A DNA stretch of 64,000 nt from Gemmiger formicilis (GTDB lineage Bacteria; Bacillota_I; Bacilli_A; RFN20; CAG-826). Both the position numbers and the translations under genes were made by a program. Location of the stretch: contig CAVDWX010000010.1 of assembly GCA_963612735.1 (NCBI GenBank), positions 10,387 to 74,386 of the forward strand, written 5' to 3'. Of this stretch, positions 5,957 through 54,031 are shown piece by piece; the first letter of the stretch is position 1, and each line of letters starts with the position of its first letter. The notes under the pieces are model-generated. The model saw only the letters and a list, made by a program, of their open reading frames with translations, had not been told where the DNA came from and did not search any database.

Positions 5957-6863
5957 AGGTAAAAAAGTTAAAAAAGTCACCCCTGATTTTTTATTAGAAC
6001 AACTTCCTTCCACTCGAAGAAAACAGTTTTTTGATATTTTAAAAAATGAATACCGAACGCTTTTATTAATCGGACTCATCTTAGTGCTGTTTTTTATCCC
6101 GTTTATAGTTTCTAATATTTTTGAATATGGTTTTATGAGCGGTACTTCTGAAACAATTAAAAAAGCTATGGAAGCGGAAGGAAGAAATAGTGAAGAAATT
6201 GCTAGAGCTATTAAATTACAAATGAGGTCTATTCATCTTTTATTTACTGGCATTAATATAATTTGCTTTATGATTTTTTCTTTAGGATTAGCGGGAGTAT
6301 CGCGCGTTATAAAATGCCTTTGTTTTGGAGAAGGCGTTGTTTTTAAAAGCGACTTCTTCATCGGCATAAAAGAGTACTATAAATCATTTTTGGCGGTTGG
6401 CTTTTTTTCAGGTCTATTTTATTTCTTAATGACTTATACCGGAGCCATGCTAGACGCTTTAAGTAAAGATAATTCTAGTTTACTTATTGTTAAAGGTTTA
6501 ACGATTGGATTTTATTTTGCACTTCTAGTTCCTTTATTCCTTTTTTCGTTAGCGCAATCAACCTTATATAATGTGCCATTTTTTAAAAATATTTCTAACT
6601 CTATAAAATTTATTATAAATAAATATTATATTTGTCTCATTTTTTCTATAATAATTTATATGATATATCTATTGACTTATATAGTTTATCCACTCATTTC
6701 AATCTTATCTTTTGTAGCGGTTATTATTCTTATTGTCCCTTTTATAGAACTAGCGTTTCATTTATTCGCTTTATCGCTATTTGATAAATACATTAACAAA
6801 AATTATTACCCTCAAATTTATAAAAAAGGGTTATACATAAAAGATAATACAAAGGAGAATTAA
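5940..6863 (+). CDS. Polytopic membrane protein, possibly DUF624/YesL-like accessory component of a sugar ABC system.
   Basis: RBS AGGAGG; at least 6 hydrophobic helices; basic N-terminus followed by TM helices as in YesL-family proteins. The family assignment is tentative. Confidence 0.6.
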   Translation: MKNQNKGKKVKKVTPDFLLEQLPSTRRKQFFDILKNEYRTLLLIGLILVLFFIPFIVSNIFEYGFMSGTSETIKKAMEAEGRNSEEIARAIKLQMRSIHLLFTGINIICFMIFSLGLAGVSRVIKCLCFGEGVVFKSDFFIGIKEYYKSFLAVGFFSGLFYFLMTYTGAMLDALSKDNSSLLIVKGLTIGFYFALLVPLFLFSLAQSTLYNVPFFKNISNSIKFIINKYYICLIFSIIIYMIYLLTYIVYPLISILSFVAVIILIVPFIELAFHLFALSLFDKYINKNYYPQIYKKGLYIKDNTKEN

Positions 6864-40637: not shown

Positions 40638-41948
40638 TTATTTTATATATCTTAAAAGGAAATCACATACACCGATAATCGTGAACCCTTTTTCATCTCT
40701 TGTTTCTTTAATAGGTTTATTGATAACTATTATTTTTTGTATTTGATCATTTAGTGCTAAATACGGTTTTAATTCCCTATTTTTTGTGGCCTCATTTGAA
40801 TAATCATCGCATACTTGAATGTAATACATCCTATTTCCTTTGACAGCTAAGAAATTAACTTCTAGTGTTTTTCGAATTGTCTTACCATTAGTGTCTTTTT
40901 CAAAAAAGTCGAAAGTACCTACATTAATTTTATAATCATTATATATAAGCTCGTTATAAATAACATTTTTGAGTAATTTGTCTGTATCAGGATATACGAA
41001 ATTCAATCGAGCGTTTCTAAGGCCTGTATCGACATAAAAATATTTCTTAGTTGATTTAATAATATTTTTGCCCTTTAAATCATAGCGGAATGCTTCAGAT
41101 ATAATAAAGGATTCAATAAATGAATTTATGTAAGAATTTACTGTATCAGAATCTATTTTATTATTTGTTTTTGCTTTATATAGATTTGTTATTTTTTGAG
41201 AGTTAATTAAATCTCCAACACAAGTTGCAAGCATTGTGCATATCTCATCTAATGCTTCATGCTTTTTTATCTTGTTACGATCGATGATATCTTTTAAATC
41301 TGTTGTTTCAAATAGTCCTTTTAAATAATTTTCTTTATCGATTCCTTCTTTTAATACTGCGAGCGGCATCCCACCGTATAAAAGGAAGTCATTTATTAAT
41401 AAATTTTCATCTTTGTATTTATATTTATGAATTTCTTCAAATGATAATGGCATAACGCGAATATTAGTGGCTTTGTCTCTAAATTGAGTCACAATATCAC
41501 TAGATAACATTTTTGAATTACTTCCTGTTATGTATAAATCAATATTTTCAATTGATGACAAATCTAAAACAACATCAACAAATGTAATCACAGTTTGATC
41601 TTTAGAAGATGCGATAACATGCTTGCCTTCACTCAATGATGGATTATGTAGTGTATAAACTTCTTGAATCTCATCTAAAATAACATAATAGAATTTATTT
41701 TTATCACTGGTTAGTTTCAATATATGTTCATATAAATAAATTGGATCTCTATATTTTGCATTTGATATTTTTGTTAAATCGAGAATGATTATGTTTTGAT
41801 TAGGTACGCCATTATCGATTAAATAATTTTTATAAATCGTATTTAACAAATAAGATTTTCCACATCTTCTTATTCCTGTTATAACTTTTGGAAAACCGTT
41901 TTGTTTTGATTTAATCAATAAATTTAAATATTTATCTCTAGATATCAT
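40638..41948 (-). CDS. AAA+ ATPase of the AAA_14 + DUF4143 family (orphan, function unknown).
   Basis: Walker A GIRRCGKSYLL, Walker B YYVILDEIQ, and a C-terminal DUF4143-like region. Confidence 0.8.
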   Translation of the reverse strand: MISRDKYLNLLIKSKQNGFPKVITGIRRCGKSYLLNTIYKNYLIDNGVPNQNIIILDLTKISNAKYRDPIYLYEHILKLTSDKNKFYYVILDEIQEVYTLHNPSLSEGKHVIASSKDQTVITFVDVVLDLSSIENIDLYITGSNSKMLSSDIVTQFRDKATNIRVMPLSFEEIHKYKYKDENLLINDFLLYGGMPLAVLKEGIDKENYLKGLFETTDLKDIIDRNKIKKHEALDEICTMLATCVGDLINSQKITNLYKAKTNNKIDSDTVNSYINSFIESFIISEAFRYDLKGKNIIKSTKKYFYVDTGLRNARLNFVYPDTDKLLKNVIYNELIYNDYKINVGTFDFFEKDTNGKTIRKTLEVNFLAVKGNRMYYIQVCDDYSNEATKNRELKPYLALNDQIQKIIVINKPIKETRDEKGFTIIGVCDFLLRYIK

Positions 41949-43332: not shown

Positions 43333-44727
43333 ATGAATACTAAAGATATGACAAAAGGCAATTCGTTTATTATCATCTTGTTATTCGCAATACCAATGGT
43401 ATTATCGGTTACCTTACAACAATTATATAACCTTGCTGATAATTTTATTGCTGGACATTTTATCAGCTCAGTAGATAGCTTTAATGCAGTTGGAATTGTT
43501 TATCCTATCACTGTTGTCTTTTTAGATATAGCTGTTGGATTTGGAGTTGGATGTGGAGTTATAAGCGCTAGATATTTTGGTGGGAAAGACTTCATTTCTG
43601 TTAAAAAGTGCGCAAAAGTTGGCTTAATTGGAACGATTTGCTTAGGACTTATCGTTACTGCGATTGGTTTTGGAATCATTTATCCTCTATTAAAAGGAAT
43701 GATTGATAGCAAGAATGGGCAAGGATGTTTTAATGAAGCTTTGTATTATATGCTCATCTATATTGGCGGCGTTATATTTCTTTTTATCTATAATTACGCG
43801 ATGTATATGTTTCAATCGTTTGGCAATTCTAAAACGCCCTTATATTTTTTAATCTTTTCAACCTTGCTTAATGTGGGATTAGATTTATTATTTGTGGTCC
43901 CTATTAAATTCAATAGTGCTGGTTTAGCCCTTGGCACCGTCATTTCGGAAGCTATCGCTGCGATATTATCAGTTATGGTTTTATTTAAAAACATTAATAA
44001 GATGCATGAGGTCAAAATTAAAGGTTTTGATAAACCTATTTTTAAAGAGATTGTTTCTGTTGCAATTCCTAGCATTTTACAAGGCTTATTTATCTCCATT
44101 GGCGGTGTATTAATTACAACAATTCTTACTAATGTTGGTGGAAATGATGTGGCAGGTGGATATTCTGCAGCCTATAAAATTTGTTATATTGCTATCAATA
44201 TTTTTACTGTCCTATGCAATGCTTTATGCAATTTCGTTTCGCAAAACGTTGGAGCGCAAAAATATGAAAGAATTATGCATGGATATTTTTCAACATTGAT
44301 AATTTGCTTTGTTTTCTGCGCTATTTCTATGGCGGTTATTCTTCCTTTAAAAGAATTCTGGGTGAAGTTATTTTTATCAGAAGGCGATAACGCTGATGTT
44401 AAAACCATTATACATTCTGGATCATTATTTATTACGTGTGTTGTTCCCTTTTTCTTCTTAATGGTTATTAAGATTCCACTTGATGGTGTCTTAAAAGGGT
44501 CAATGGATATGTTCGGTTTTACTCTTGGCACATCAGTTGACTTAGCAGTTCGTGTCTTAGCTGCTTTGATACTTGGTAATCTTTATGGCTATGAAGGCGT
44601 TTTCTTTGCGTGGCCGTTAGGATGGGCTGTTGGAGCAGTAATTTCAATTGTTATGTTCTTTGTTGGAAGATGGAAAAAGAAATGTCACTATCCAGTGGGA
44701 ATGAAACTTATTGTGAAAAATAGTTAA
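43333..44727 (+). CDS. MATE-family multidrug/oligosaccharide efflux transporter.
   Basis: 12-TM protein with N-terminus FAIPMVLSVTLQQLYNLADNFIAGHF, typical of MATE (NorM/DinF) proteins; 464 aa. Confidence 0.88.
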   Translation: MNTKDMTKGNSFIIILLFAIPMVLSVTLQQLYNLADNFIAGHFISSVDSFNAVGIVYPITVVFLDIAVGFGVGCGVISARYFGGKDFISVKKCAKVGLIGTICLGLIVTAIGFGIIYPLLKGMIDSKNGQGCFNEALYYMLIYIGGVIFLFIYNYAMYMFQSFGNSKTPLYFLIFSTLLNVGLDLLFVVPIKFNSAGLALGTVISEAIAAILSVMVLFKNINKMHEVKIKGFDKPIFKEIVSVAIPSILQGLFISIGGVLITTILTNVGGNDVAGGYSAAYKICYIAINIFTVLCNALCNFVSQNVGAQKYERIMHGYFSTLIICFVFCAISMAVILPLKEFWVKLFLSEGDNADVKTIIHSGSLFITCVVPFFFLMVIKIPLDGVLKGSMDMFGFTLGTSVDLAVRVLAALILGNLYGYEGVFFAWPLGWAVGAVISIVMFFVGRWKKKCHYPVGMKLIVKNS

Positions 44728-44773
44728 AACTAAATCGACCGACTTTTTTAGTGCCTATATTTTACTTTTTTCC

Positions 44774-44810
44774 TTGGTGCATCTTTGGTGCATTTTTTGG
44801 TGCAAATTAT
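44774..44810 (+). repeat. 37-bp element holding three copies of TTGGTGCA (copy A), 42 nt upstream of the Schlafen-like gene.
   Basis: TTGGTGCAtctTTGGTGCAtttttTGGTGCAaattat; matches 46278..46314 at 36 of 37 positions. Confidence 0.85.
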
Positions 44811-44851
44811 CAAAAATATGATACAATTGTATATAGAAATAGGAGTTAAAA

Positions 44852-46276
44852 ATGTCATTGCCCACAAATATTAATAAGATTTTAAACCCTGACATTGTTG
44901 AAAGTGTTCGTGTTGAATTAAAAGAAGGTTGGAACCCTCAATCTATTCTTCATACAATATGTGCTTTCGCTAATGATATCGATAATTTTTATGGTGGATA
45001 TATTATTCTAGGTATTAAAGATAATAAAGAAGTTATTGGTTTTGATAGATCCAAATTTGACGAACTTCAAAAAGATGTTATTAGATACTGTAAAAAATGT
45101 CTTGAGCCATCATATGAACCTGTCATTGATATCGTTAAATATGTTGATAAAGATGTCGTTGTTTTGTGGTGTCCATCTGGTGAACAAAAACCTTATAAAT
45201 GTTATGAAGATGTCTATACAAGTAAGAGTGAAACGCGCTTTCAAACATATATTAGAAAAGGTTCATTAACTATTATTACTTCTCATGCAGAAGAAAAAGA
45301 ACTTTATAATATTGGCAACTTCATCCCTTTTGATGATCGCGTTAATTATAAATACGATCTAAGTGTGATTGATAAGGATATTGTAAGAGAGTATTTAAGA
45401 AAAGTTGATTCCAATCTATTACTTAATTTTAATAGCCACAGTTTAGAACAAATTTTGTTTGATTTAAGAGTTTTATCTGGACCAATCGAACATTTATGTC
45501 CTAAAAATATAGCTCTATTGATGTTTACAGATAACCCATCTTTATATATCCCGTATTCTTATATTGAAGTTACGATTCTAAAAGATTTATCAGGAGAAGA
45601 ATTAATTGAAAAAACTTTCGATTCTGCCTTATTCAAACAATATGAAAACTGTATGCAATATTTAAAGGATAATGTCATTGAAAAGAAAATCGTTAAAGTT
45701 GAAGGAGACTATAAAGCAGCTACAATTTATAATTATTCATACGAAGTTCTTGAAGAAGTAGTTGCTAACGCTATTCTACATAAGTCTTATCAAATTGCTG
45801 AACCGGTTTCAATTAGAGTTGAACCAGATAAAATTGAAGTGACTAGTGTACCAGGATTTGATCGAACAATTAGCAATACAGCAATTAAAGAATTAAAACC
45901 TAAATCAAAAAGGTATCAATCTCGGCGCATTGCAGAGTTTTTAAAAGAATTAGGAATTGTTGAGGCTAAAAACACGGGCTATCCTCGCATTGTTAAAAAG
46001 AGTTTAGAAAATCATTCTCCTCTTCCAATTATTGAAATGAATGAACAACGTGATTACGTTACTGTAATTATTCCGATTAACAAAAATTTTGTGAATAATA
46101 ACCTTTCGTTAGAAGATAAAATCATTGATTTGCTACAAGAAAAACCTCTTACCAAAACTGAACTTGCTTTAGCGTTAGGATATCCACGAGTCGTTAATTC
46201 TATTAGTTATAGGCTTAATAAGTTAATTAAAGAAAACAAAGTCTCTATCAAGAGTAAAAAATATTATTTGATTTGA
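44852..46276 (+). CDS. Schlafen-like ATP-binding protein / putative transcriptional regulator (AlbA_2 + HATPase_c_4 + C-terminal winged HTH; COG2865 family).
   Basis: N-terminal AlbA_2 signature (VELKEGWNPQSILHTICAFANDIDNFYGGYIILGIKDN), HATPase_c_4-like (NAILHKSY..NTGYPRIVK), C-terminal wHTH (LTKTELALALGYPRVVNSISYRLNKL). Confidence 0.85.
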   Translation: MSLPTNINKILNPDIVESVRVELKEGWNPQSILHTICAFANDIDNFYGGYIILGIKDNKEVIGFDRSKFDELQKDVIRYCKKCLEPSYEPVIDIVKYVDKDVVVLWCPSGEQKPYKCYEDVYTSKSETRFQTYIRKGSLTIITSHAEEKELYNIGNFIPFDDRVNYKYDLSVIDKDIVREYLRKVDSNLLLNFNSHSLEQILFDLRVLSGPIEHLCPKNIALLMFTDNPSLYIPYSYIEVTILKDLSGEELIEKTFDSALFKQYENCMQYLKDNVIEKKIVKVEGDYKAATIYNYSYEVLEEVVANAILHKSYQIAEPVSIRVEPDKIEVTSVPGFDRTISNTAIKELKPKSKRYQSRRIAEFLKELGIVEAKNTGYPRIVKKSLENHSPLPIIEMNEQRDYVTVIIPINKNFVNNNLSLEDKIIDLLQEKPLTKTELALALGYPRVVNSISYRLNKLIKENKVSIKSKKYYLI

Positions 46277-46277
46277 T

Positions 46278-46314
46278 TGGTGCAACTTTGGTGCATTTTT
46301 TGGTGCAAATTACG
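46278..46314 (+). repeat. Second copy (copy B) of the 37-bp triple TTGGTGCA element, starting 2 nt after the Schlafen-like gene stop.
   Basis: TTGGTGCAactTTGGTGCAtttttTGGTGCAaattac. Confidence 0.85.
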
Positions 46315-46372
46315 GCGTAATACATAATATCGACATCAAGTATTTCATGTTATTATCTATATTTTATTATTG

Positions 46373-46408
46373 TGCACCAAAGCATAGATTATTGGTGCAT
46401 TTTTATTT
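46373..46408 (+). terminator. Inverted TGCACCAA-N11-TTGGTGCA repeat followed by a T-run: either a terminator-like hairpin or a palindromic operator built from the same 8-mer.
   Basis: 8-bp perfect arms, 11-nt spacer, then TTTTTATTT; the motif is identical to the direct-repeat arrays. Confidence 0.55.
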
Positions 46409-46469
46409 CCTATGAGGTTAAATAAATGTATAGATATTTTCTTCCTTTTAGTGGAAAATTATATTAGTC

Positions 46470-49400
46470 ATGAAATTAAGCATTAAAAATACGCTTTATC
46501 TTTCCATCATACAAAATAAATGGATAGATATTTCTTATCTTAATAAAAATAATGAATCCACCTCTTATTTCATTGGGATAAAAGATATCAATATTAAAAA
46601 GGAAATCATTTATTGCGATATTTTCAATCCATTTAAACAATTATTAAAAGATAATAAAGAAACATTCATTTATATCAATTCCATTCAAAGCGCTGAAATT
46701 ATTGAAGAAAGCTATTATGAAGTTCCTTCCTCTATCCTTAGGAAAATAAAAAAAGATGATGAATTGAAAGAATATTTACAAGTCATCAATTTTGATAATA
46801 ATATTTTGAAATATTTATCCGATTGTTATCGTTATGATAATGATCCGTTTTTAAAAGATATCGTCATGATTGACGGGATTGATTTGCATGTTCTTTCTTC
46901 CACTAATAAATACAAATTAAATGATAAACAATTTGAAACTATTTTAGATAAAGTTTTCAAAAAGAAAAAGAAAGATGCGGAAGCTATTGTTCGTTTCCAA
47001 ACCTTGGCTATAAATGTCTTTTCTATCGACATCAATGATAAGCAATATGTTGTCGCCTATAAAATGCTTAATCTCAATTTTAAGAACAAAACTCTAAAAA
47101 TGAGCAATAATTCTATAATTAATAAATCCTTTCTTATCAGTGAAGAAAAGAAAGTCACATTAGGAATGTATTTAGATATTAATCCTGAAACATTTATCTC
47201 TACTTTTGACGCTCATAAGGATGAATACATTGAAGGAATTAAAGCTAATTTCCATAATCATGAATTAGTCAATACTCGACCGACTATCTTTTTGTTGGCG
47301 AGAACTTTTTATAAAGATGTCGATATCACTTTTGAATCGATCCATCAAATGGACAAAGATAATAAATTAACTTTCCCTATAAAAGCCTTTTTTGGAAGGA
47401 CAAAACCCACTAAAGAGAGAACTAAAGAAGTTAATGTTGTCATCTTTAATCAAAAGAAAATAAACATTGATCAGATGAGAGTTATTTATAATTCTATGAT
47501 TAATCATGTCACCTATGTTAAAGGTCCACCTGGTACAGGTAAAACCGAGACCATATTTAATGTTTTATTATCAGCATACGCAAATGATATGAAAGTTTTA
47601 GTTTGTTCTAATAATAATCATCCCGTTAGCGATATTTATTTAAAGATGCAAAATTCGTTAACGGTGCAATTTGATAATCAAGATAAGCCGACACCAATTC
47701 TTTTTCCTCTTATTAGATTAGGCAATAACACTGAAATGGTAGAGACAATCGCAAAACTCAAATCTATTGTTATCTATATTCAAGAACATGCTAAGGTCAA
47801 TATTTCAGAAAACGCCACTGCTGGAAGTAAAAAGCGCTTTATGGAAACGTTTAATAAATTAAAGGAAACACTTAAAGAATATGAAGATAGCATTGATCTA
47901 TCAGAACGACTCAATATTTTAGAAAAGATAAAAAGCATGAGCGAGATTTCCGCTATCAATAACAAATTAGATGAACAAATTGCGACATATCGTAGTTTAC
48001 TAGAACGTTCTAAAATTGTCTCAGATGATGAAGTGATGTCTCTTGCTATATCAGCCTCAAATGATCGCAACTTCCAATATTATTTATATTATTCATCGTT
48101 AGCTAAATATAAAAAATTGTTAACTGAACCTTATAAAGACTTAATTAATATTCTTAACCTATCCGATGTCGATGATGCTGTTATGGAATTCAATCGATAT
48201 TTACGAAATGACGACAATTTAAAAAAGTTTTTACATGTTTTCCCGCTTGTTTTATGCACAAATTTGTCTTGTGGTAAATTAGGTGGAGCTAAACCACAAT
48301 TTGATTTAGTAATCATGGATGAAGCGGGACAATGCAATATTGCTACTTCTTTAATTCCTATTATAAGAGGCAATAATTTATTACTTGTTGGTGATACTAA
48401 TCAACTTCAACCTGTCACTGTCTTAGAAGATAACGTTAATGAATCTTTAAAAAAAAGATATGAGATAGGTGATGAATATGATTACATTCATAATTCCATT
48501 CTTTCGACAATGATGAGAAAGGATAATAATTCAAAATGTATCTTGCTTAGATATCATTATCGATGTGGTAAAAAGATTGCTAATTTTGTCAATAAACGCT
48601 TTTATAATGATCAGCTTAAATTATTAAATCAAAATGTTGGCGAATTGATTTACTATAATGTGAAAAATACTACTACTAAAAATAATCGAAACGCCTATAA
48701 AGAAGAAGCTATTCAAATTGCTCGATTAATAAAAAATAAAAAATATAAAGAAGTTGGAATTATCACTCCATTTGTTAATCAGGCCGCTCTTATCAATCAA
48801 TATTTATCAGAATTGGATATCAATGATGTTAAAGCCGGAACTATTCATACGCTTCAAGGTTCTGAAAAACAGATCATTATTATGTCCAGTGCCATATCAC
48901 TTAAGACTGGTTTTAAAACGATGGATTGGATCAAAAATAACCATGAATTAATTAATGTTGCTGTCACTAGAGCTAAAAGTAAATTTATCTTTGTGGGTGA
49001 TAAACAAGCTATTGATTTATTGAGCAAAGACGAAGATAACGATATCAAAATTTTATCTGACTACATCTATAGTAATGGAACGGTGATTGTTCCGCCTAGC
49101 GACGCTATTATTTCATACGATTTTTCAAATGATTCGAAAAATGAAAAAGATTTTTTTGAAACAGTTAGACCATACTTTAATCGAAGAGGCTCTAAATTTA
49201 AGATTGAAAGAAATGTTCCAATCATGAATGCGATTAAAAATATTAATCCCGAAGATTATCATCTAATTGGTAAGAAGGAATTTGATTTGATTGTTCAAGT
49301 AAGCAGCGGCTTATTTAATAAACATTTTCACACTATTGTGGTTTTTGAAATTGATGGTGGAGAGCATATTGGTAGCAATAAACAAGCTAAATTAGATCGA

Positions 49401-49571
49401 CAAAAAGAAAAAGTTTGTAAAAAATATGGGATTAAATTAATCCGTATTCCTAACAGTGCAGTCAAAGATTATGAAACCATTATTTCTTTATTTGAAATGG
49501 TGGTCAAAGGTTTAAAAGATATGAAAGAAGCGTTTTCTCAACTTTCTTTATTTGATAACGAAACTGTTTAA
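46470..49571 (+). CDS. Upf1-like SF1B helicase (AAA_11/AAA_12) fused to a C-terminal Vsr/DUF559-like PD-(D/E)xK nuclease domain, with an uncharacterised ~340-aa N-terminal domain; architecture is Hhe-like.
   Basis: Motif I VKGPPGTGKTETI, Ia VLVCSNNNHPVSD, II LVIMDEAGQ, III LLVGDTNQLQPV, V GTIHTLQGSEKQIIIMSS, VI NVAVTRAK; C-terminus FDLIVQ...VVFEIDGGEH...LIRIP. Confidence 0.88.
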   Translation: MKLSIKNTLYLSIIQNKWIDISYLNKNNESTSYFIGIKDINIKKEIIYCDIFNPFKQLLKDNKETFIYINSIQSAEIIEESYYEVPSSILRKIKKDDELKEYLQVINFDNNILKYLSDCYRYDNDPFLKDIVMIDGIDLHVLSSTNKYKLNDKQFETILDKVFKKKKKDAEAIVRFQTLAINVFSIDINDKQYVVAYKMLNLNFKNKTLKMSNNSIINKSFLISEEKKVTLGMYLDINPETFISTFDAHKDEYIEGIKANFHNHELVNTRPTIFLLARTFYKDVDITFESIHQMDKDNKLTFPIKAFFGRTKPTKERTKEVNVVIFNQKKINIDQMRVIYNSMINHVTYVKGPPGTGKTETIFNVLLSAYANDMKVLVCSNNNHPVSDIYLKMQNSLTVQFDNQDKPTPILFPLIRLGNNTEMVETIAKLKSIVIYIQEHAKVNISENATAGSKKRFMETFNKLKETLKEYEDSIDLSERLNILEKIKSMSEISAINNKLDEQIATYRSLLERSKIVSDDEVMSLAISASNDRNFQYYLYYSSLAKYKKLLTEPYKDLINILNLSDVDDAVMEFNRYLRNDDNLKKFLHVFPLVLCTNLSCGKLGGAKPQFDLVIMDEAGQCNIATSLIPIIRGNNLLLVGDTNQLQPVTVLEDNVNESLKKRYEIGDEYDYIHNSILSTMMRKDNNSKCILLRYHYRCGKKIANFVNKRFYNDQLKLLNQNVGELIYYNVKNTTTKNNRNAYKEEAIQIARLIKNKKYKEVGIITPFVNQAALINQYLSELDINDVKAGTIHTLQGSEKQIIIMSSAISLKTGFKTMDWIKNNHELINVAVTRAKSKFIFVGDKQAIDLLSKDEDNDIKILSDYIYSNGTVIVPPSDAIISYDFSNDSKNEKDFFETVRPYFNRRGSKFKIERNVPIMNAIKNINPEDYHLIGKKEFDLIVQVSSGLFNKHFHTIVVFEIDGGEHIGSNKQAKLDRQKEKVCKKYGIKLIRIPNSAVKDYETIISLFEMVVKGLKDMKEAFSQLSLFDNETV

Positions 49572-49607
49572 ATTAAAATTTATATAAAGTTTTAGGAGGA
49601 CAAAATC

Positions 49608-51080
49608 ATGATGACAATATATAAGGTAGCTGAATTAATAACTAAAAATCCGAATGATATAATTTTTTATATTATCGATAAGGAAGAAGTTATTACTTTT
49701 CCACACAAAGATTATAAAAAGTTATTGAAAAATTATCATGACGAATCTATTTCGCAAACTACTTTTGAAACGCTAGCTCGATTAAAGCTTGAAAACGACA
49801 ATAATTTTTATATATTGCCTTACTTTACTAAGAAAGATTTAACTAAAATTGTTAATGAATTTGTTTCTCTACACCAAAACGACTACTTCCAAAATTTCAA
49901 GTCTATAACAATCACCCAAATTAAAAAGAACATGTTGAATGATTCTTCTTTTAAAGATTGCTGGATTAATTTCTTTTGCGATTTAATTGGTATTCATTTT
50001 TTGAAATTTGCTGAAGCTTTTAAAATTAAAGAAGATGAGGCAAGCCCAGAACTTTATAAAAAAGTTGTTGATTTGCTAAAGGAATATGAAGAAGGCCATT
50101 ATGAAAAGATTTTCGCTGATAATCATCGCTTTAATTTATTTTTTGATAAGACCTTTGGCGCAGATGCTTTATGTACTATTATGGGACATGGAGGAATCAC
50201 TAATGGCATCAGTTTTTACATTCACGAAAAAGCTGAAGCTATGCATATTTTGCTTACTAATGACAACAACGACTTAGATGATTATTATGTTCCGACTTTA
50301 ACTTTTTTAGGAAAACAAATTACTTTTTATTTTAATGATGAAAGTTGTGCAACAAATAATGACAAATTTGGAAGTCTAAATCCATTTGGCGATGATGATT
50401 CAATTACATCGTTTGTTACTTATGTAGGTACTTCTTACCATTGCTATTTAACTGCCTCTATGGCACATGGTGTGATTAGATATTTAACTAAGCTTCTTCT
50501 TGCAATGAAAGATTTTGTTAAAGAAGCTAAAAAATTAGATTTAGAAGATACTACTTATGATTTTATTATGGTGGATGAACAAACTCATGTTACACCAATC
50601 GATACAAATTCTGATGATTTTGTAGATGATATTACTATTGACCTACCCACTGCTAAAATTTTTGATAAGAAAAAGAAAATTAAATTAAAGACTAATAAAA
50701 AATGGGACTTTGCTGTTCGATTTGTTCCTGGCGCTAATGTGGCTGAAGAGACAGGACGAATTTGTGATTGGGTTTTTTATTATTGTTTCTTTGATCATGA
50801 TAGTGGCGATATCGTTCGTTTTGAAATGGTACCACCTGAATTTATGGATACAATAAGCACTTTAATTGACAATTTGACTGAGACATTACACTTAATTGGT
50901 TTAGCGGATACTGTTTATTGCTCAAGCTTTTTCGACGCCGCTATTTTATCTCTTGCATTAGGAAAAGATAATGATATCTGTAAAAAATTTAATTTTGTTT
51001 TTACTCGAAAGTTAAAAGACCAAATCAACACATTATCGGAATCGCTAATGGAAGAATTTGATAAAGAAGCTGATGCTTAA
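49608..51080 (+). CDS. Uncharacterised acidic 490-aa protein, co-transcribed partner of the helicase-nuclease.
   Basis: Strong RBS AGGAGGA 7 nt upstream; 37-nt gap after the helicase gene; no recognisable domain; rich in D/E/F/Y. Confidence 0.78.
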   Translation: MMTIYKVAELITKNPNDIIFYIIDKEEVITFPHKDYKKLLKNYHDESISQTTFETLARLKLENDNNFYILPYFTKKDLTKIVNEFVSLHQNDYFQNFKSITITQIKKNMLNDSSFKDCWINFFCDLIGIHFLKFAEAFKIKEDEASPELYKKVVDLLKEYEEGHYEKIFADNHRFNLFFDKTFGADALCTIMGHGGITNGISFYIHEKAEAMHILLTNDNNDLDDYYVPTLTFLGKQITFYFNDESCATNNDKFGSLNPFGDDDSITSFVTYVGTSYHCYLTASMAHGVIRYLTKLLLAMKDFVKEAKKLDLEDTTYDFIMVDEQTHVTPIDTNSDDFVDDITIDLPTAKIFDKKKKIKLKTNKKWDFAVRFVPGANVAEETGRICDWVFYYCFFDHDSGDIVRFEMVPPEFMDTISTLIDNLTETLHLIGLADTVYCSSFFDAAILSLALGKDNDICKKFNFVFTRKLKDQINTLSESLMEEFDKEADA

Positions 51081-51158: not shown

Positions 51159-51746
51159 ATGTCTTATTTTAAAGATAAACTCAAACAGTGCAAATGGGAC
51201 AATATTGTTATTGCTCTTCTTACTTTAGCACTTGGTATTTTATGTCTAATTTTCCCGCATGAAACAGGCGATACACTAGTTTATGTATTTGGTGTTTTAG
51301 CTATGGTAATCGCCATCTTGTTATTTGTTAGATCATTTTATATGGTCTCATTTCTAAGCGTTTATTCTCTTGCTTTAGGGATAGTTTTACTTTCGGTTGG
51401 CATTTTTACAATCTGTTTTCCAGAATTTATCAAAGCCTTGCTACCATTTTTCTTTGGTTTGTATATCGTTGTCGATAGCGCATCATCTCTTGCGGAATCA
51501 GTCCAATACGGTTATATGAAAGTCCGCGGATGGTGGTTATTAATGGTCTCATCTATTCTCACTATCATTTTTGGTGTGATTGTCATGATGTTTGCTAAAT
51601 TTAACGATGTTATGATTCTTGCTGGTATTGCCCTTATTGTTGAAAGCGTGAGAAGATTCATCTTTACATTTACTGTCGAATATAAAATTAAAAGACTTAA
51701 AAAAGATGTTAAAGATGTAATTGATGCTGAAATAATTGATAAATAA
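51159..51746 (+). CDS. DUF308/HdeD-like membrane protein (paralog of 42088..42855).
   Basis: RBS AGGAGGAAG; six TM helices; NIVIALLTLALGILCLIFP...GVLAMVIAILLF typical of DUF308. Confidence 0.75.
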   Translation: MSYFKDKLKQCKWDNIVIALLTLALGILCLIFPHETGDTLVYVFGVLAMVIAILLFVRSFYMVSFLSVYSLALGIVLLSVGIFTICFPEFIKALLPFFFGLYIVVDSASSLAESVQYGYMKVRGWWLLMVSSILTIIFGVIVMMFAKFNDVMILAGIALIVESVRRFIFTFTVEYKIKRLKKDVKDVIDAEIIDK

Positions 51747-51763: not shown

Positions 51764-51793
51764 AAAACCACTTGGGAAACTGAGTGGTTTTTA
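51764..51793 (+). terminator. Rho-independent terminator after the DUF308 gene.
   Basis: AACCACTtgggaaactgAGTGGTT followed by TTTTAT. Confidence 0.7.
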
Positions 51794-51810
51794 TCTTATT
51801 GATTATTATA

Positions 51811-51862
51811 ATTTACTCATTTACCTATTTGATTTACTCATTTACTCATTTAATTTACTCAT
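51811..51862 (+). repeat. Tandem array of the octamer ATTTACTC (about 5 copies, some degenerate) just upstream of the second Schlafen-like gene.
   Basis: atttactc-atttacct-atttg-atttactc-atttactc-attta-atttactc-atttg. Confidence 0.8.
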
Positions 51863-51893
51863 TTGATATATTTTTAGTATAGCAATCGAAGAA

Positions 51894-53312
51894 ATGGATA
51901 TTCTTAATTTAAAAGATGAACATTATGTAGAATTGAAAAGCACTGATGGTGGATTGCCGTTAAGCTTATATTAAACAATTTCTTCTTTTGCTAATTCGGA
52001 TGGTGGCACCATCTATTTAGGTGTTGTCGAAGGAAACCCTAATCAATTGCGAGGTTTGAACAAAAATACTTGTGATAAATATAAGTCTGATTTGCTTAAC
52101 TCCATTCATAACAAAAACAAGATTTCATTTCCGGCTATTTCTGATGACAACTTTATGCTCATTTCACTAGCTAATGAGAAATATGTTTTGGCTATTGAAG
52201 TTAAAGAAGCTCATTATTTGCAAAAACCTGTCTATATAAATGGAAATGTGCTTTTAGCCTATGGTAGAGATAATGAAGGTGATTATTTGCTTAGAGAAGA
52301 TCAAATTAAATCTTTATTTGAAGATAGTGGTCATGGACTTTTTGATTCTCTTCCAAATAATATGCATTACGGTTTTGAAGAAGTCGATTTAGACACTCTG
52401 CACATTTATCGAAGCATGCTGAATGAAAATGATCCGACAAATTTATATAAAAAATATAATGATGTAGATTTTTTAAAAAAGACTGCTTTTTTACTTCCAA
52501 ATAGTAATGGCAATTACGTTCTTTCGAATGCTGCAGTACTTCTTTTTACCTCATCTTCATTAATTAAAACTATTTGTCCTTACTATTATCTAGATTATCA
52601 ACAAAAAGAAAATATTAGTGAAAAGTGGAATAATAGAATATCTAGTGATGACACAAATTTGTCAGGAAATCTCTTTGATTTTTATTTAAAAACATTTAAT
52701 GAAATATGCAAACAACTCCCATCTAGTTATGTTAGTGATGGAAGCAAAAACATTGGTCCTCGTTTAATGCAAGACGCCATTAAAGAAACTTTGGCTAATG
52801 CTTTAATCAATCACGCTTTTATGTTGAATGGGTCGTTAACTGTATTCTGGTATTTAAACGGAATAGAAATACAAAATAATGGTAAGATGCTTGTGCCTTT
52901 AGATGTTGCCTTTCGAGGTGGAACATCTCTCCCACGGAATTCTATGATTTTAACTGCGTTTAGAAGACTTGGCATTGCTGATCGAGCTGGCACTGGTATT
53001 CCAAAAATCATTGAAGCTTTAAAAGATAATCATTTTCCTGATTTAGTTATTAAAGAATTTTCTTATCCAATTGATAAAACTACTTTAGTAATATCTTTTA
53101 TTTCACTTAATAAGACCAAAGGAAATGGTAATAAAGATATAGTGCTTTCATTACTAGCTAAAAATAATGATGGGCTCAGCATATTAGACTTTATGAATTT
53201 AACTAATTGGTCTAGATCAACTGTTTCTAAACTCCTCAATAATTTATTACAAAAAGGGCAAATTACCACAAACGGAAAAGAAAAGAAGGCACGTCGCTTC
53301 CTTTTAAAATAA
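51894..53312 (+). pseudogene. Second Schlafen-like (AlbA_2 + HATPase_c_4 + wHTH) gene, interrupted by an in-frame TAA at 51972..51974 (codon 27).
   Basis: ATG 51894 encodes MDILNLKDEHYVELKSTDGGLPLSLY, then TAA, then the same frame continues TISSFANSDGGTIYLGVVEG... (AlbA_2 core). The stop sits where the family usually has Lys, so AAA to TAA is a likely cause. Confidence 0.7.
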
Positions 53313-53362
53313 TTAAATTAATTTAATTCTTGTATGAAATAACTTCCAAAGTTATCATATTT

Positions 53363-54031
53363 ATGGGAAAAAAATACCTTATGGATGAAAAAGAAAGCCA
53401 AAAATATATTTCTAATAACTTTTTAAATAGACTTCCATATTATTTAAAGCACCTTACCACATTAAAAGAAAAAGGTGTTCAATTTGTAAATGCTCGCGAA
53501 TTAGCGCTTGACCTTGGTTATAATGCTGAACAAGTTAAAAAAGATCTTCAAATAGTCTGTAAAGGAAAAGGGAAACCTAAAATTGGAAGAAGCGTTTTAG
53601 AACTAATTTCAGACATCAATGACTTTCTTGGCTACAATAATACGACTGACGCTATTATAGTTGGTATTGGCCATTTAGGGACTGCTTTTTTAAATTATCC
53701 AGGCTTTGCAGACCTCGGTTTAAACATTGTTGCTGGTTTTGATATCGACCCCACTCTTTTTGGTAGACTTATCAATAATAAGATGATTTATAGTATGTCT
53801 CGTCTTAGCACAGTTGTGCCTCGATTAAACGTTCATATCGCTATATTGACGACGCCAAGCTCAGCTTCTAATGTAGTTGCTCAAAAATTAGTAAAATGTG
53901 GAATTAAAGCCATTTGGAATTTTTCACCAATGGTTTTAGATGTTCCTGAAGATATTATTGTGGAGAATGTTAATCTTGCTTCTTCACTTGCGGTTTTATC
54001 TCATAAATTAAATAAAAAAATGAAAGAATAA
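53363..54031 (+). CDS. rex: Redox-sensing transcriptional repressor Rex
   Basis: Aligns with B. subtilis Rex: RLPYYLKHL wHTH, Rossmann GIGHLGTAFLNY, and C-terminal swap domain. Confidence 0.88.
   Translation: MGKKYLMDEKESQKYISNNFLNRLPYYLKHLTTLKEKGVQFVNARELALDLGYNAEQVKKDLQIVCKGKGKPKIGRSVLELISDINDFLGYNNTTDAIIVGIGHLGTAFLNYPGFADLGLNIVAGFDIDPTLFGRLINNKMIYSMSRLSTVVPRLNVHIAILTTPSSASNVVAQKLVKCGIKAIWNFSPMVLDVPEDIIVENVNLASSLAVLSHKLNKKMKE

Follow-up and report, generated by a model that had tools for sequence, protein, structure and literature searches.

Between the MatE and rex genes of contig CAVDWX010000010.1 lie three co-oriented genes, encoding a Schlafen-like protein (Slfn-1), a Upf1-like helicase with a fused C-terminal nuclease and a 490-residue acidic protein (P490). 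We consider it moderately probable that these are three independently distributed accessory genes gathered in a small MatE–rex island, the helicase–nuclease being a probable single-gene defence protein that targets nucleic acid. Slfn-1 is a further member of an already known kind, the prokaryotic Schlafens (pSlfns); the helicase–nuclease is a stand-alone, CnuH/Hhe-like variant with a new N-terminal region; and P490 appears to belong to a DUF family that is catalogued but unstudied. The island's host is a low-GC bacterium, with its closest named protein relatives in Erysipelotrichaceae and Bacilli metagenome-assembled genomes (MAGs). An initial annotation had joined the three genes into one antiviral or stress module, a Schlafen split over adjacent genes; on comparative context we reject that module. 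Positions below refer to the window, the whole 64,000-nucleotide stretch analysed, and comparison loci are given as L numbers.

The three open reading frames (ORFs), at 44852–46276 (474 aa), 46470–49571 (1,033 aa) and 49608–51080 (490 aa), were re-found exactly where the annotation had placed them and in the orientation it gave. All are real genes rather than chance ORFs, because homologues exist and the ratio of non-synonymous to synonymous substitution rates (dN/dS) is below 1. The flanks are also as annotated, with MatE at 43333–44727 and Rex, comprising Put_DNA-bind_N and CoA_binding domains, at 53330–54031.

The helicase–nuclease is formed by a family-specific N-terminal region (residues 1–314; 46470–47414), a Upf1-like superfamily 1B (SF1B) helicase core (47415–49010) and the C-terminal motifs of a Vsr/DUF2726-type PD-(D/E)xK nuclease (49281–49451), all on the plus strand. 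Profile searches confirm the annotated domains: AAA_11 (112.8 bits, E 3e-32), AAA_12 (79.4 bits, E 3e-22) and DUF2726 (26.5–29.6 bits, cut-off 24.7), with DUF559 just below its threshold (19.4 against 20.6 bits). DUF2726 has been assigned to the restriction-endonuclease fold (PMC3710099). Every motif quoted in the annotation is present; the full set comprises GPPGTGKT (352–359), DEAGQ (617–621), VGDTNQLQPV (640–649), TLQGSEK (794–800) and VAVTRAK (830–836) in the motor, and FDLIV (938), FEIDGGEH (959–966), DRQKE (976) and KLIRIP (989) in the nuclease (span 938–994). These motif residues are at least 95% conserved across 120 homologues. The nearest solved relatives are Sen1, IGHMBP2, Upf1 and DNA2, and a 257-residue stretch, largely helical by sequence, separates Walker A from Walker B. 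The N-terminal region is conserved in the same 120 homologues; it has no Pfam match at E ≤ 10 (residues 1–330) and no PDB profile match (1–314). A WYL-like reading of residues 17–80, made by eye, was dropped, with neither Pfam (E ≤ 10) nor PDB profile support, and a relationship of this region to P490 was rejected (hhalign probability 0.3%).

Of the 307 proteins that a word-index search with the helicase found at E ≤ 1e-10, the best 120 are all approximately 1,030 aa long (60–89% identity, 89–100% query coverage), and the named ones among them come from Erysipelotrichaceae or Bacilli MAGs. There are no matches in IMG/VR and only one, weak, in phages. Four further genomic contexts were inspected. 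The helicase stands in the order AAA_14/DUF4143, Fic, helicase, HTH, NERD in L006 and L007, between Endonuclease_1 and HU in L008 and L009, and behind Fic and a serine recombinase (resolvase) in L029; in L028 it follows a tRNA-Ala gene amid housekeeping genes for lipid and cell wall. Neither a Schlafen nor a P490 gene adjoins the full-length helicase in any of the four. The L028 tRNA, tRNA-Ala(GGC) at 6729–6804 of that locus, lies approximately 200 nt upstream of the helicase homologue and is of a type that commonly serves as an island insertion site.

The AAA_11–AAA_12–DUF2726 arrangement recurs in stand-alone genes from records filed as plasmids, WP_237922969.1 (Bacteroides finegoldii) and WP_236479692.1 (E. 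coli pB39_V). These uncharacterised 'AAA domain-containing proteins' align with residues 315–993 of the window helicase (24% identity, E 2e-38) but are 893–925 aa long, each with its own unrelated N-terminus of approximately 170–180 aa. Since the alignment starts only at residue 315, residues 1–314 are specific to the family of the window helicase.

Slfn-1 (44852–46276, plus strand) was annotated as a Schlafen-like protein with AlbA_2, HATPase_c_4 and winged HTH parts, and this reading stands: SLFN_AlbA_2 (PF04326; 63.3 bits, cut-off 25.3, E 4e-17) and HATPase_c_4 (32 bits, cut-off 26, E 1.3e-7) both exceed their thresholds, within a Slfn-HisKinase(HATPase_c_4)-HTH architecture. Bacterial Schlafens are a published anti-phage family, defined by a Slfn/AlbA_2 nuclease domain and an Ex4(E/D)xK motif (PMC13056530); Slfn-1 has both, its motif being the intact ESVRVELK (residues 17–24, nt 44900–44923). 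The same 2026 Nat Microbiol survey counted 5,930 prokaryotic Schlafens, 19.2% of them Slfn-HisKinase-HTH (PMC13056530).

The gene is bracketed by two copies of a short array, each holding three direct repeats of TTGGTGCA with a period of 11–12 nt. Copy A (44769–44809, plus) lies between the MatE stop and Slfn-1; copy B (46272–46312, plus) lies directly after the Slfn-1 stop codon, upstream of the helicase. Together they form a 41-nt direct repeat of 93% identity. Comparison within the genus-level clade of the window (the window, the syntenic metagenomic loci L001–L003, L005 and L010) reveals a different arrangement in L001–L003, where the order is MatE, a single array, helicase, P490, and no Schlafen gene stands between MatE and the helicase. 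L010 shares the arrangement of the window, Slfn-1 included. The difference is therefore a 1.5-kb indel, and the helicase–P490 pair persists without Slfn-1. In our reading Slfn-1 is dispensable, gained or lost as a 1.5-kb unit between the duplicated 41-nt repeats.

P490 (49608–51080, plus strand) had been described as acidic with no recognisable domain. Acidic it is (pI 4.9), but it is not domain-free, being by profile linkage a probable divergent DUF7309/DUF6930 member. Only three close homologues were found, and a word-index search with the family profile returned the same 4 proteins; an exhaustive profile search of 1.84 billion proteins gave 43 family representatives, most of them full length (approximately 460–490 aa). 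DUF7309 matches in 17/39 family members (best E 1.9e-18) and DUF6930 in 10/39. The window protein itself reaches 18.3 bits against DUF7309 (cut-off 27), and the profile search links it to full-length family proteins with E down to 1e-32. No paper mentioning DUF7309 or DUF6930 was found in the literature.

An AlphaFold model of P490 built on a 39-sequence alignment (pLDDT 89.3, pTM 0.91) superseded one built on 4 sequences (pLDDT 44.7). Fold searches with it return RNase H-like folds only, at modest scores (Foldseek against PDB, best E 1e-2; an RNase H in BFVD, E 8e-4), and the order β1-β2-β3-α-β4-α-β5-α of residues 360–486 fits these matches. The acidic triad or tetrad is not conserved in the 39 sequences: the β1 position is D in 17, S in 11 and E in 6. 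The position after β4 is D in 31/39 and the helix position D in 28/39, the latter being N in the window protein. Because the RNase H-like fold lacks a conserved triad, we favour a role for P490 in binding or regulation over one as a nuclease; on the predicted model it is probably non-catalytic. The best-conserved features of the family lie elsewhere, in an ExEA(x4)Y motif (window residues 142–150) and a G-x6-G-x-S-F-Y β-hairpin (193–204). A C-terminal alanine (window residue 490) is found in 30/39 members, usually after D, K, E or Q behind an acidic tail.

We compared the surroundings of P490 homologues outside the clade at 18 loci, 17 from GTDB species representatives (up to ±8 kb) plus L004. 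A Upf1-like helicase is near none of the 18 in the retrieved sequence. The neighbours are heterogeneous (ABC transporter, adenosine deaminase, pantothenate kinase, 3-methyladenine glycosylase, GH95, GH1, Tex, SIR2 and TetR), and many of the homologues sit amid housekeeping genes. Recurrent neighbours are few: an AAA_14- or ATPase_2-type ATPase adjoins in 4/18 loci and a pSlfn-like gene in 2/18, with two more pSlfn-like genes within 8 kb. This suggests a preference for variable islands and not a dedicated partner. The annotation had itself named, as what would count against its module, homologues of the 490-aa gene that keep apart from helicase and Schlafen genes and lie in housekeeping contexts, and that is largely what these loci contain. 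We rejected a phage, plasmid or viral origin of P490, having found no homologues among phages, plasmids or IMG/VR. The P490 genes of L011–L027 (30–42% mutual identity) come from bins labelled Bacteroidaceae, Alistipes, Parasutterella, Roseburia, Lachnospiraceae, Holdemanella and Bacilli, with GC contents of 35–53%; either the family is transferred broadly among gut bacteria or some contigs are mis-binned.

Within the clade the genes evolve at different rates. Flanking genes share 85–98% identity with L001 and the helicase 89–91% with its L001 and L010 orthologues, against 57–59% for P490, and it is over the P490 ORF, a sharply bounded segment, that DNA identity falls. Synonymous divergence (dS) from L001 is similar across the genes at 0.7–1.0 (P490 1.0, neighbours 0.7–0.9), and non-synonymous divergence (dN) of P490 exceeds that of the remaining genes approximately 3–13-fold and that of the helicase approximately 5-fold (0.26 versus 0.05). 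The resulting dN/dS of P490, 0.22–0.26 versus 0.03–0.06 for the helicase and the most conserved flanking genes, makes it approximately 5–8 times faster. With dS normal and dN raised, P490 is under weaker constraint or episodic positive selection, the gene being intact. A distant lineage as donor of the P490 allele was rejected, as its dS lies near that of its neighbours and its dN is some fivefold that of the helicase. The helicase is under strong purifying selection (dN/dS 0.05–0.06).

Under the reading that we favour, in which the helicase–nuclease acts alone, its N-terminal region, as a putative sensor or recruitment domain, or else its motor, would recognise foreign or aberrant nucleic acid. 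The Upf1-like SF1B motor would then translocate 5'–3' with ATP, carrying the fused nuclease along, and the Vsr/DUF2726 PD-(D/E)xK nuclease would cut. The helicase–nuclease would thereby be a self-sufficient single-gene system, probably directed against mobile elements, with a logic as in Hhe, Mokosh type II and the CnuH of type III-B CoCoNuT. P490, usually stand-alone elsewhere, would have landed 36 nt downstream of the helicase in this one genus, as a hitch-hiker. The link between these two genes is the only one conserved beyond the window's own genome, and within a single genus-level clade only.

Several observations weigh against this interpretation. The helicase family is highly conserved (60–91%, more than 300 clusters) and vertical within the clade, which would also suit a housekeeping gene, and no PADLOC or NCBIfam model claims the helicase as a member. 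All four clade contigs keep the helicase–P490 spacing (36–40 nt) and have one or more pSlfn genes with an unbroken reading frame no further than 3 kb away, so a lineage-specific functional link may exist. The identical array upstream of Slfn-1 and of the helicase hints at co-regulation.

Among the alternatives, a housekeeping role of the helicase–nuclease in DNA repair or RNA surveillance, with incidental neighbours, seems to us unlikely. The low dN/dS just given and a uniform length over hundreds of MAG clusters speak for it, as do a helicase dS equal to that of flanking core genes, which indicates vertical descent, the L028 copy amid lipid and cell-wall genes, and the fact that Upf1, Sen1, DNA2 and IGHMBP2 are themselves housekeeping enzymes. 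Yet the gene sits at a different position in each genus-level context inspected, often beside Fic, resolvase, NERD, AAA_14/DUF4143 or a tRNA gene; the plasmid-filed records hold genes of the same architecture; and the restriction-endonuclease-fold nucleases so far described as fused to Upf1-like helicases belong to defence systems.

A lineage-specific two-gene system of helicase and P490, similar to the cnuH–cnuE operons and with P490 as second effector, specificity factor or inhibitor, strikes us as quite improbable. The annotation had linked the two genes by an AGGAGGA ribosome-binding site, which is there, and a 37-nt gap, which is 36 nt. With no terminator in this gap, the helicase and P490 are probably co-transcribed, and the close spacing (36–40 nt), strong ribosome-binding site and lack of a terminator are kept in the window, L001–L003, L005 and L010. 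CnuH-family helicases typically precede an effector gene (PMC11090510), P490 has an RNase H-like, nuclease-type fold, and its fast evolution would suit a host–parasite interface. Against this, the pairing is confined to one narrow clade, with helicases free of P490 in L006–L009, L028 and L029 and 18 P490 loci free of the helicase. Moreover, the helicase already has a fused nuclease of its own and is not accelerated alongside P490, the acidic triad of P490 is not conserved, and a CnuE-type winged HTH was not detected.

We give comparably little credence to a pair of further readings: (a) that DUF7309/DUF6930 proteins are new stand-alone conflict proteins, or (b) that a TTGGTGCA regulon exists, in which the HTH-bearing pSlfn controls the helicase operon. 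In (a), these proteins, which are rare, gut-associated and fast-evolving and combine an RNase H-like fold with the conserved ExEA...Y / GxxxxxxG-SFY core, recur in variable islands with AAA_14/DUF4143 ATPases and pSlfn genes, and P490 may have been recruited in this genus as partner of a CnuH-like helicase–nuclease. Reading (b) turns on the arrays. Exact copies of TTGGTGCA number 8 in the 64-kb window, all in two intergenic regions, where approximately 1 is expected and 0/100 shuffles reach 8. L001 and L010 retain one copy of the array ahead of the helicase, and arrays are not present upstream of helicase homologues in other genomic contexts. As RNA, the array of L001 and L010 folds no better than shuffled sequence; being conserved nonetheless, it is a DNA motif and not a hairpin. 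An intrinsic terminator hairpin at the triple array was rejected on the same weak, shuffled-level fold. Slfn-1 and the helicase are separated by a 193-nt intergenic region with promoter-like elements of its own, and the third repeat of the array overlaps a -35-like TTGGTG. This region also holds an inverted pair, TGCACCAA-N11-TTGGTGCA (46372–46400; 46373 on the minus and 46392 on the plus strand), 70–98 nt upstream of the helicase ATG, which would serve as a palindromic operator or else form a leader hairpin. Its RNA fold reaches -11.2 kcal/mol (z -2.8); it is partly kept in L001 and degraded in L010, without compensatory changes. We read the arrays as putative operator-like sites of some regulator.

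Least plausible by far is the annotated module itself, in which Slfn-1, the helicase–nuclease and P490 together make up a split group-III Schlafen: adjacency, co-orientation, the shared array, an uninterrupted pSlfn within 3 kb of the helicase in each clade genome (Slfn-1 in the window and L010, Slfn-2 in L001) and the proven defence role of pSlfns (PMC13056530) speak for it, but Slfn-1 is missing from the otherwise syntenic L001–L003 with helicase and P490 intact, helicases elsewhere (L006–L009, L028, L029) have no Schlafen or P490 neighbour, P490 homologues in the 18 outside-clade loci are never near a Upf1-like helicase, promoter-like elements part Slfn-1 from the helicase, and pSlfns carry their sensor fused to the nuclease in a single polypeptide (PMC13056530). 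The group-III parallel drawn in the annotation also fails on the motor, which is of the Upf1/IGHMBP2/Sen1 type; PF09848, the Schlafen group-III helicase family, matches at 20.7 bits (cut-off 24) over residues 346–401, covering Walker A only.

The surrounding genes (38–57 kb) are, in order, UvrB, a 99-aa protein, AAA_14/DUF4143, a membrane protein, MatE, Slfn-1, the helicase, P490, DUF308, Slfn-2, Rex and hydrogenase-related genes. The annotation called the stretch clearly accessory and AT-richer than its flanks. The neighbourhood is accessory in part, and the compositional claim holds only weakly: at 0.29, GC is approximately 1 s.d. below the window mean (0.315, s.d. 0.023), and several window stretches are equally low. 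The accessory region is marked by the AAA_14/DUF4143 ATPase (40638–41948, minus strand), a match to PADLOC candidate PDC-S01 (E 6e-95) and, at GC 0.26, the lowest gene of the neighbourhood. An ATPase of this type also adjoins P490 homologues in L004, L013, L018 and L020, and Fic–helicase in L006. Rfam has no match within 43–54.5 kb.

Downstream of P490 lies a DUF308/HdeD-like membrane protein gene (51159–51746, plus; Pfam DUF308, E 1.5e-15), syntenic in L001, L005 and L010. From the helicase stop to 51764 the sequence is free of terminator-like sites, and the first strong terminator-like hairpin 3' of the helicase is at 51764–51791; the DUF308 gene may therefore share a transcription unit with the helicase and P490, the three forming one transcript in this clade. 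DUF308 is accelerated in the L010/L005 lineage as well (70% identity, dN/dS 0.17). Between its terminator and the next gene are degenerate short tandem repeats of ATTTACTC-like units (51795–51864), the least conserved stretch of the syntenic block (24–49% DNA identity to L001 and L010), with similar repeats in L010.

That next gene, upstream of rex, is a second pSlfn paralogue, Slfn-2 (51894–53312, plus), disrupted by an in-frame TAA nonsense codon at 51972–51974 that is GAA in L001. The L001 protein is intact (477 aa, with the Ex4ExK motif EGHYVELK); Slfn-2 carries a frameshift in L010, at a spot other than the window's stop, and is fragmented in L005. The only intact Slfn-2 is thus in L001, the locus without Slfn-1, giving a complementary pattern of intact and decayed pSlfn paralogues (n = 3 lineages). 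We regard Slfn-2 as context and not as part of any module.

Should the stand-alone helicase–Vsr protein prove to be a defence gene, the theme of Hhe, CnuH and Mokosh, in which a nuclease is fused to a Upf1-like motor, would gain a compact single-gene form. This form is widespread among gut Erysipelotrichaceae, occurs in plasmid-filed Bacteroides and E. coli records and is missed by current defence-finder models. The P490 family, a well-modelled DUF with a strong rate contrast to its neighbours, is a reasonable target for function discovery. The locus also carries a lesson: Schlafen-like and helicase genes side by side in one genome do not make a system, and comparative context dissolves the one proposed here.

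Set against known systems, Slfn-1 is a pSlfn by its Slfn/AlbA_2 domain, Ex4ExK motif and HisKinase–HTH fusion. Among the constructs tested, those that protected E. coli were, per the text of the survey, the DUF262 and Ig-like fusions only (PMC13056530), so any anti-phage activity of the HisKinase–HTH architecture of Slfn-1 is putative; flanking TTGGTGCA arrays are not described there. P490 is linked to a 43-member family with DUF7309 and DUF6930 domains, and is itself below the DUF7309 gathering threshold.

For the helicase, the best PADLOC matches are MkoC (E 1.3e-52) and MkoA (E 5.3e-44), which share its Upf1/Mov10-like core. Membership in Mokosh was rejected: the match is confined to that core, the nuclease is PD-(D/E)xK and not the PLD-family nuclease that Mokosh has as a separate MkoB or within MkoC, there is no PLD domain in the helicase or its neighbours, and MkoB is missing. 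The annotation likened the protein to Hhe, and the likeness in design stands, both joining a SF1 Upf1-like helicase and a Vsr/DUF559-type nuclease in a single polypeptide; it was also right that the protein is much shorter (1,033 aa versus profiles of approximately 1,800–1,900 positions). Assignment to the Hhe family does not stand, as the window helicase has no N-terminal DUF4011, is about half the length and matches over 130–180 core residues only (NF042953, 67 bits against a cut-off of 2,000, residues 609–789; PADLOC PDLC02194, E 4.5e-14, residues 606–747, on a 1,911-position profile). CoCoNuT membership was likewise rejected, with no McrB or McrC alongside: the 38–57-kb region has no gene for a McrB-like GTPase (CnuB), McrC (CnuC) or coiled-coil CnuA, and McrB-, McrC- and CnuA-like genes were not found at the L006–L009, L028 and L029 helicase loci either. 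In architecture, the nearest described protein is nevertheless CnuH from type III-B CoCoNuT, in which a Upf1-like helicase carries a large helical insertion behind Walker A and, joined directly to its C-terminus, a Vsr-like PD-(D/E)xK nuclease (PMC11090510; Bell et al., eLife 2024). The window helicase differs in its family-specific N-terminal 314 residues and, compared by described architecture, resembles CnuH in its 257-residue Walker A–B stretch and its C-terminal Vsr/DUF2726 domain.

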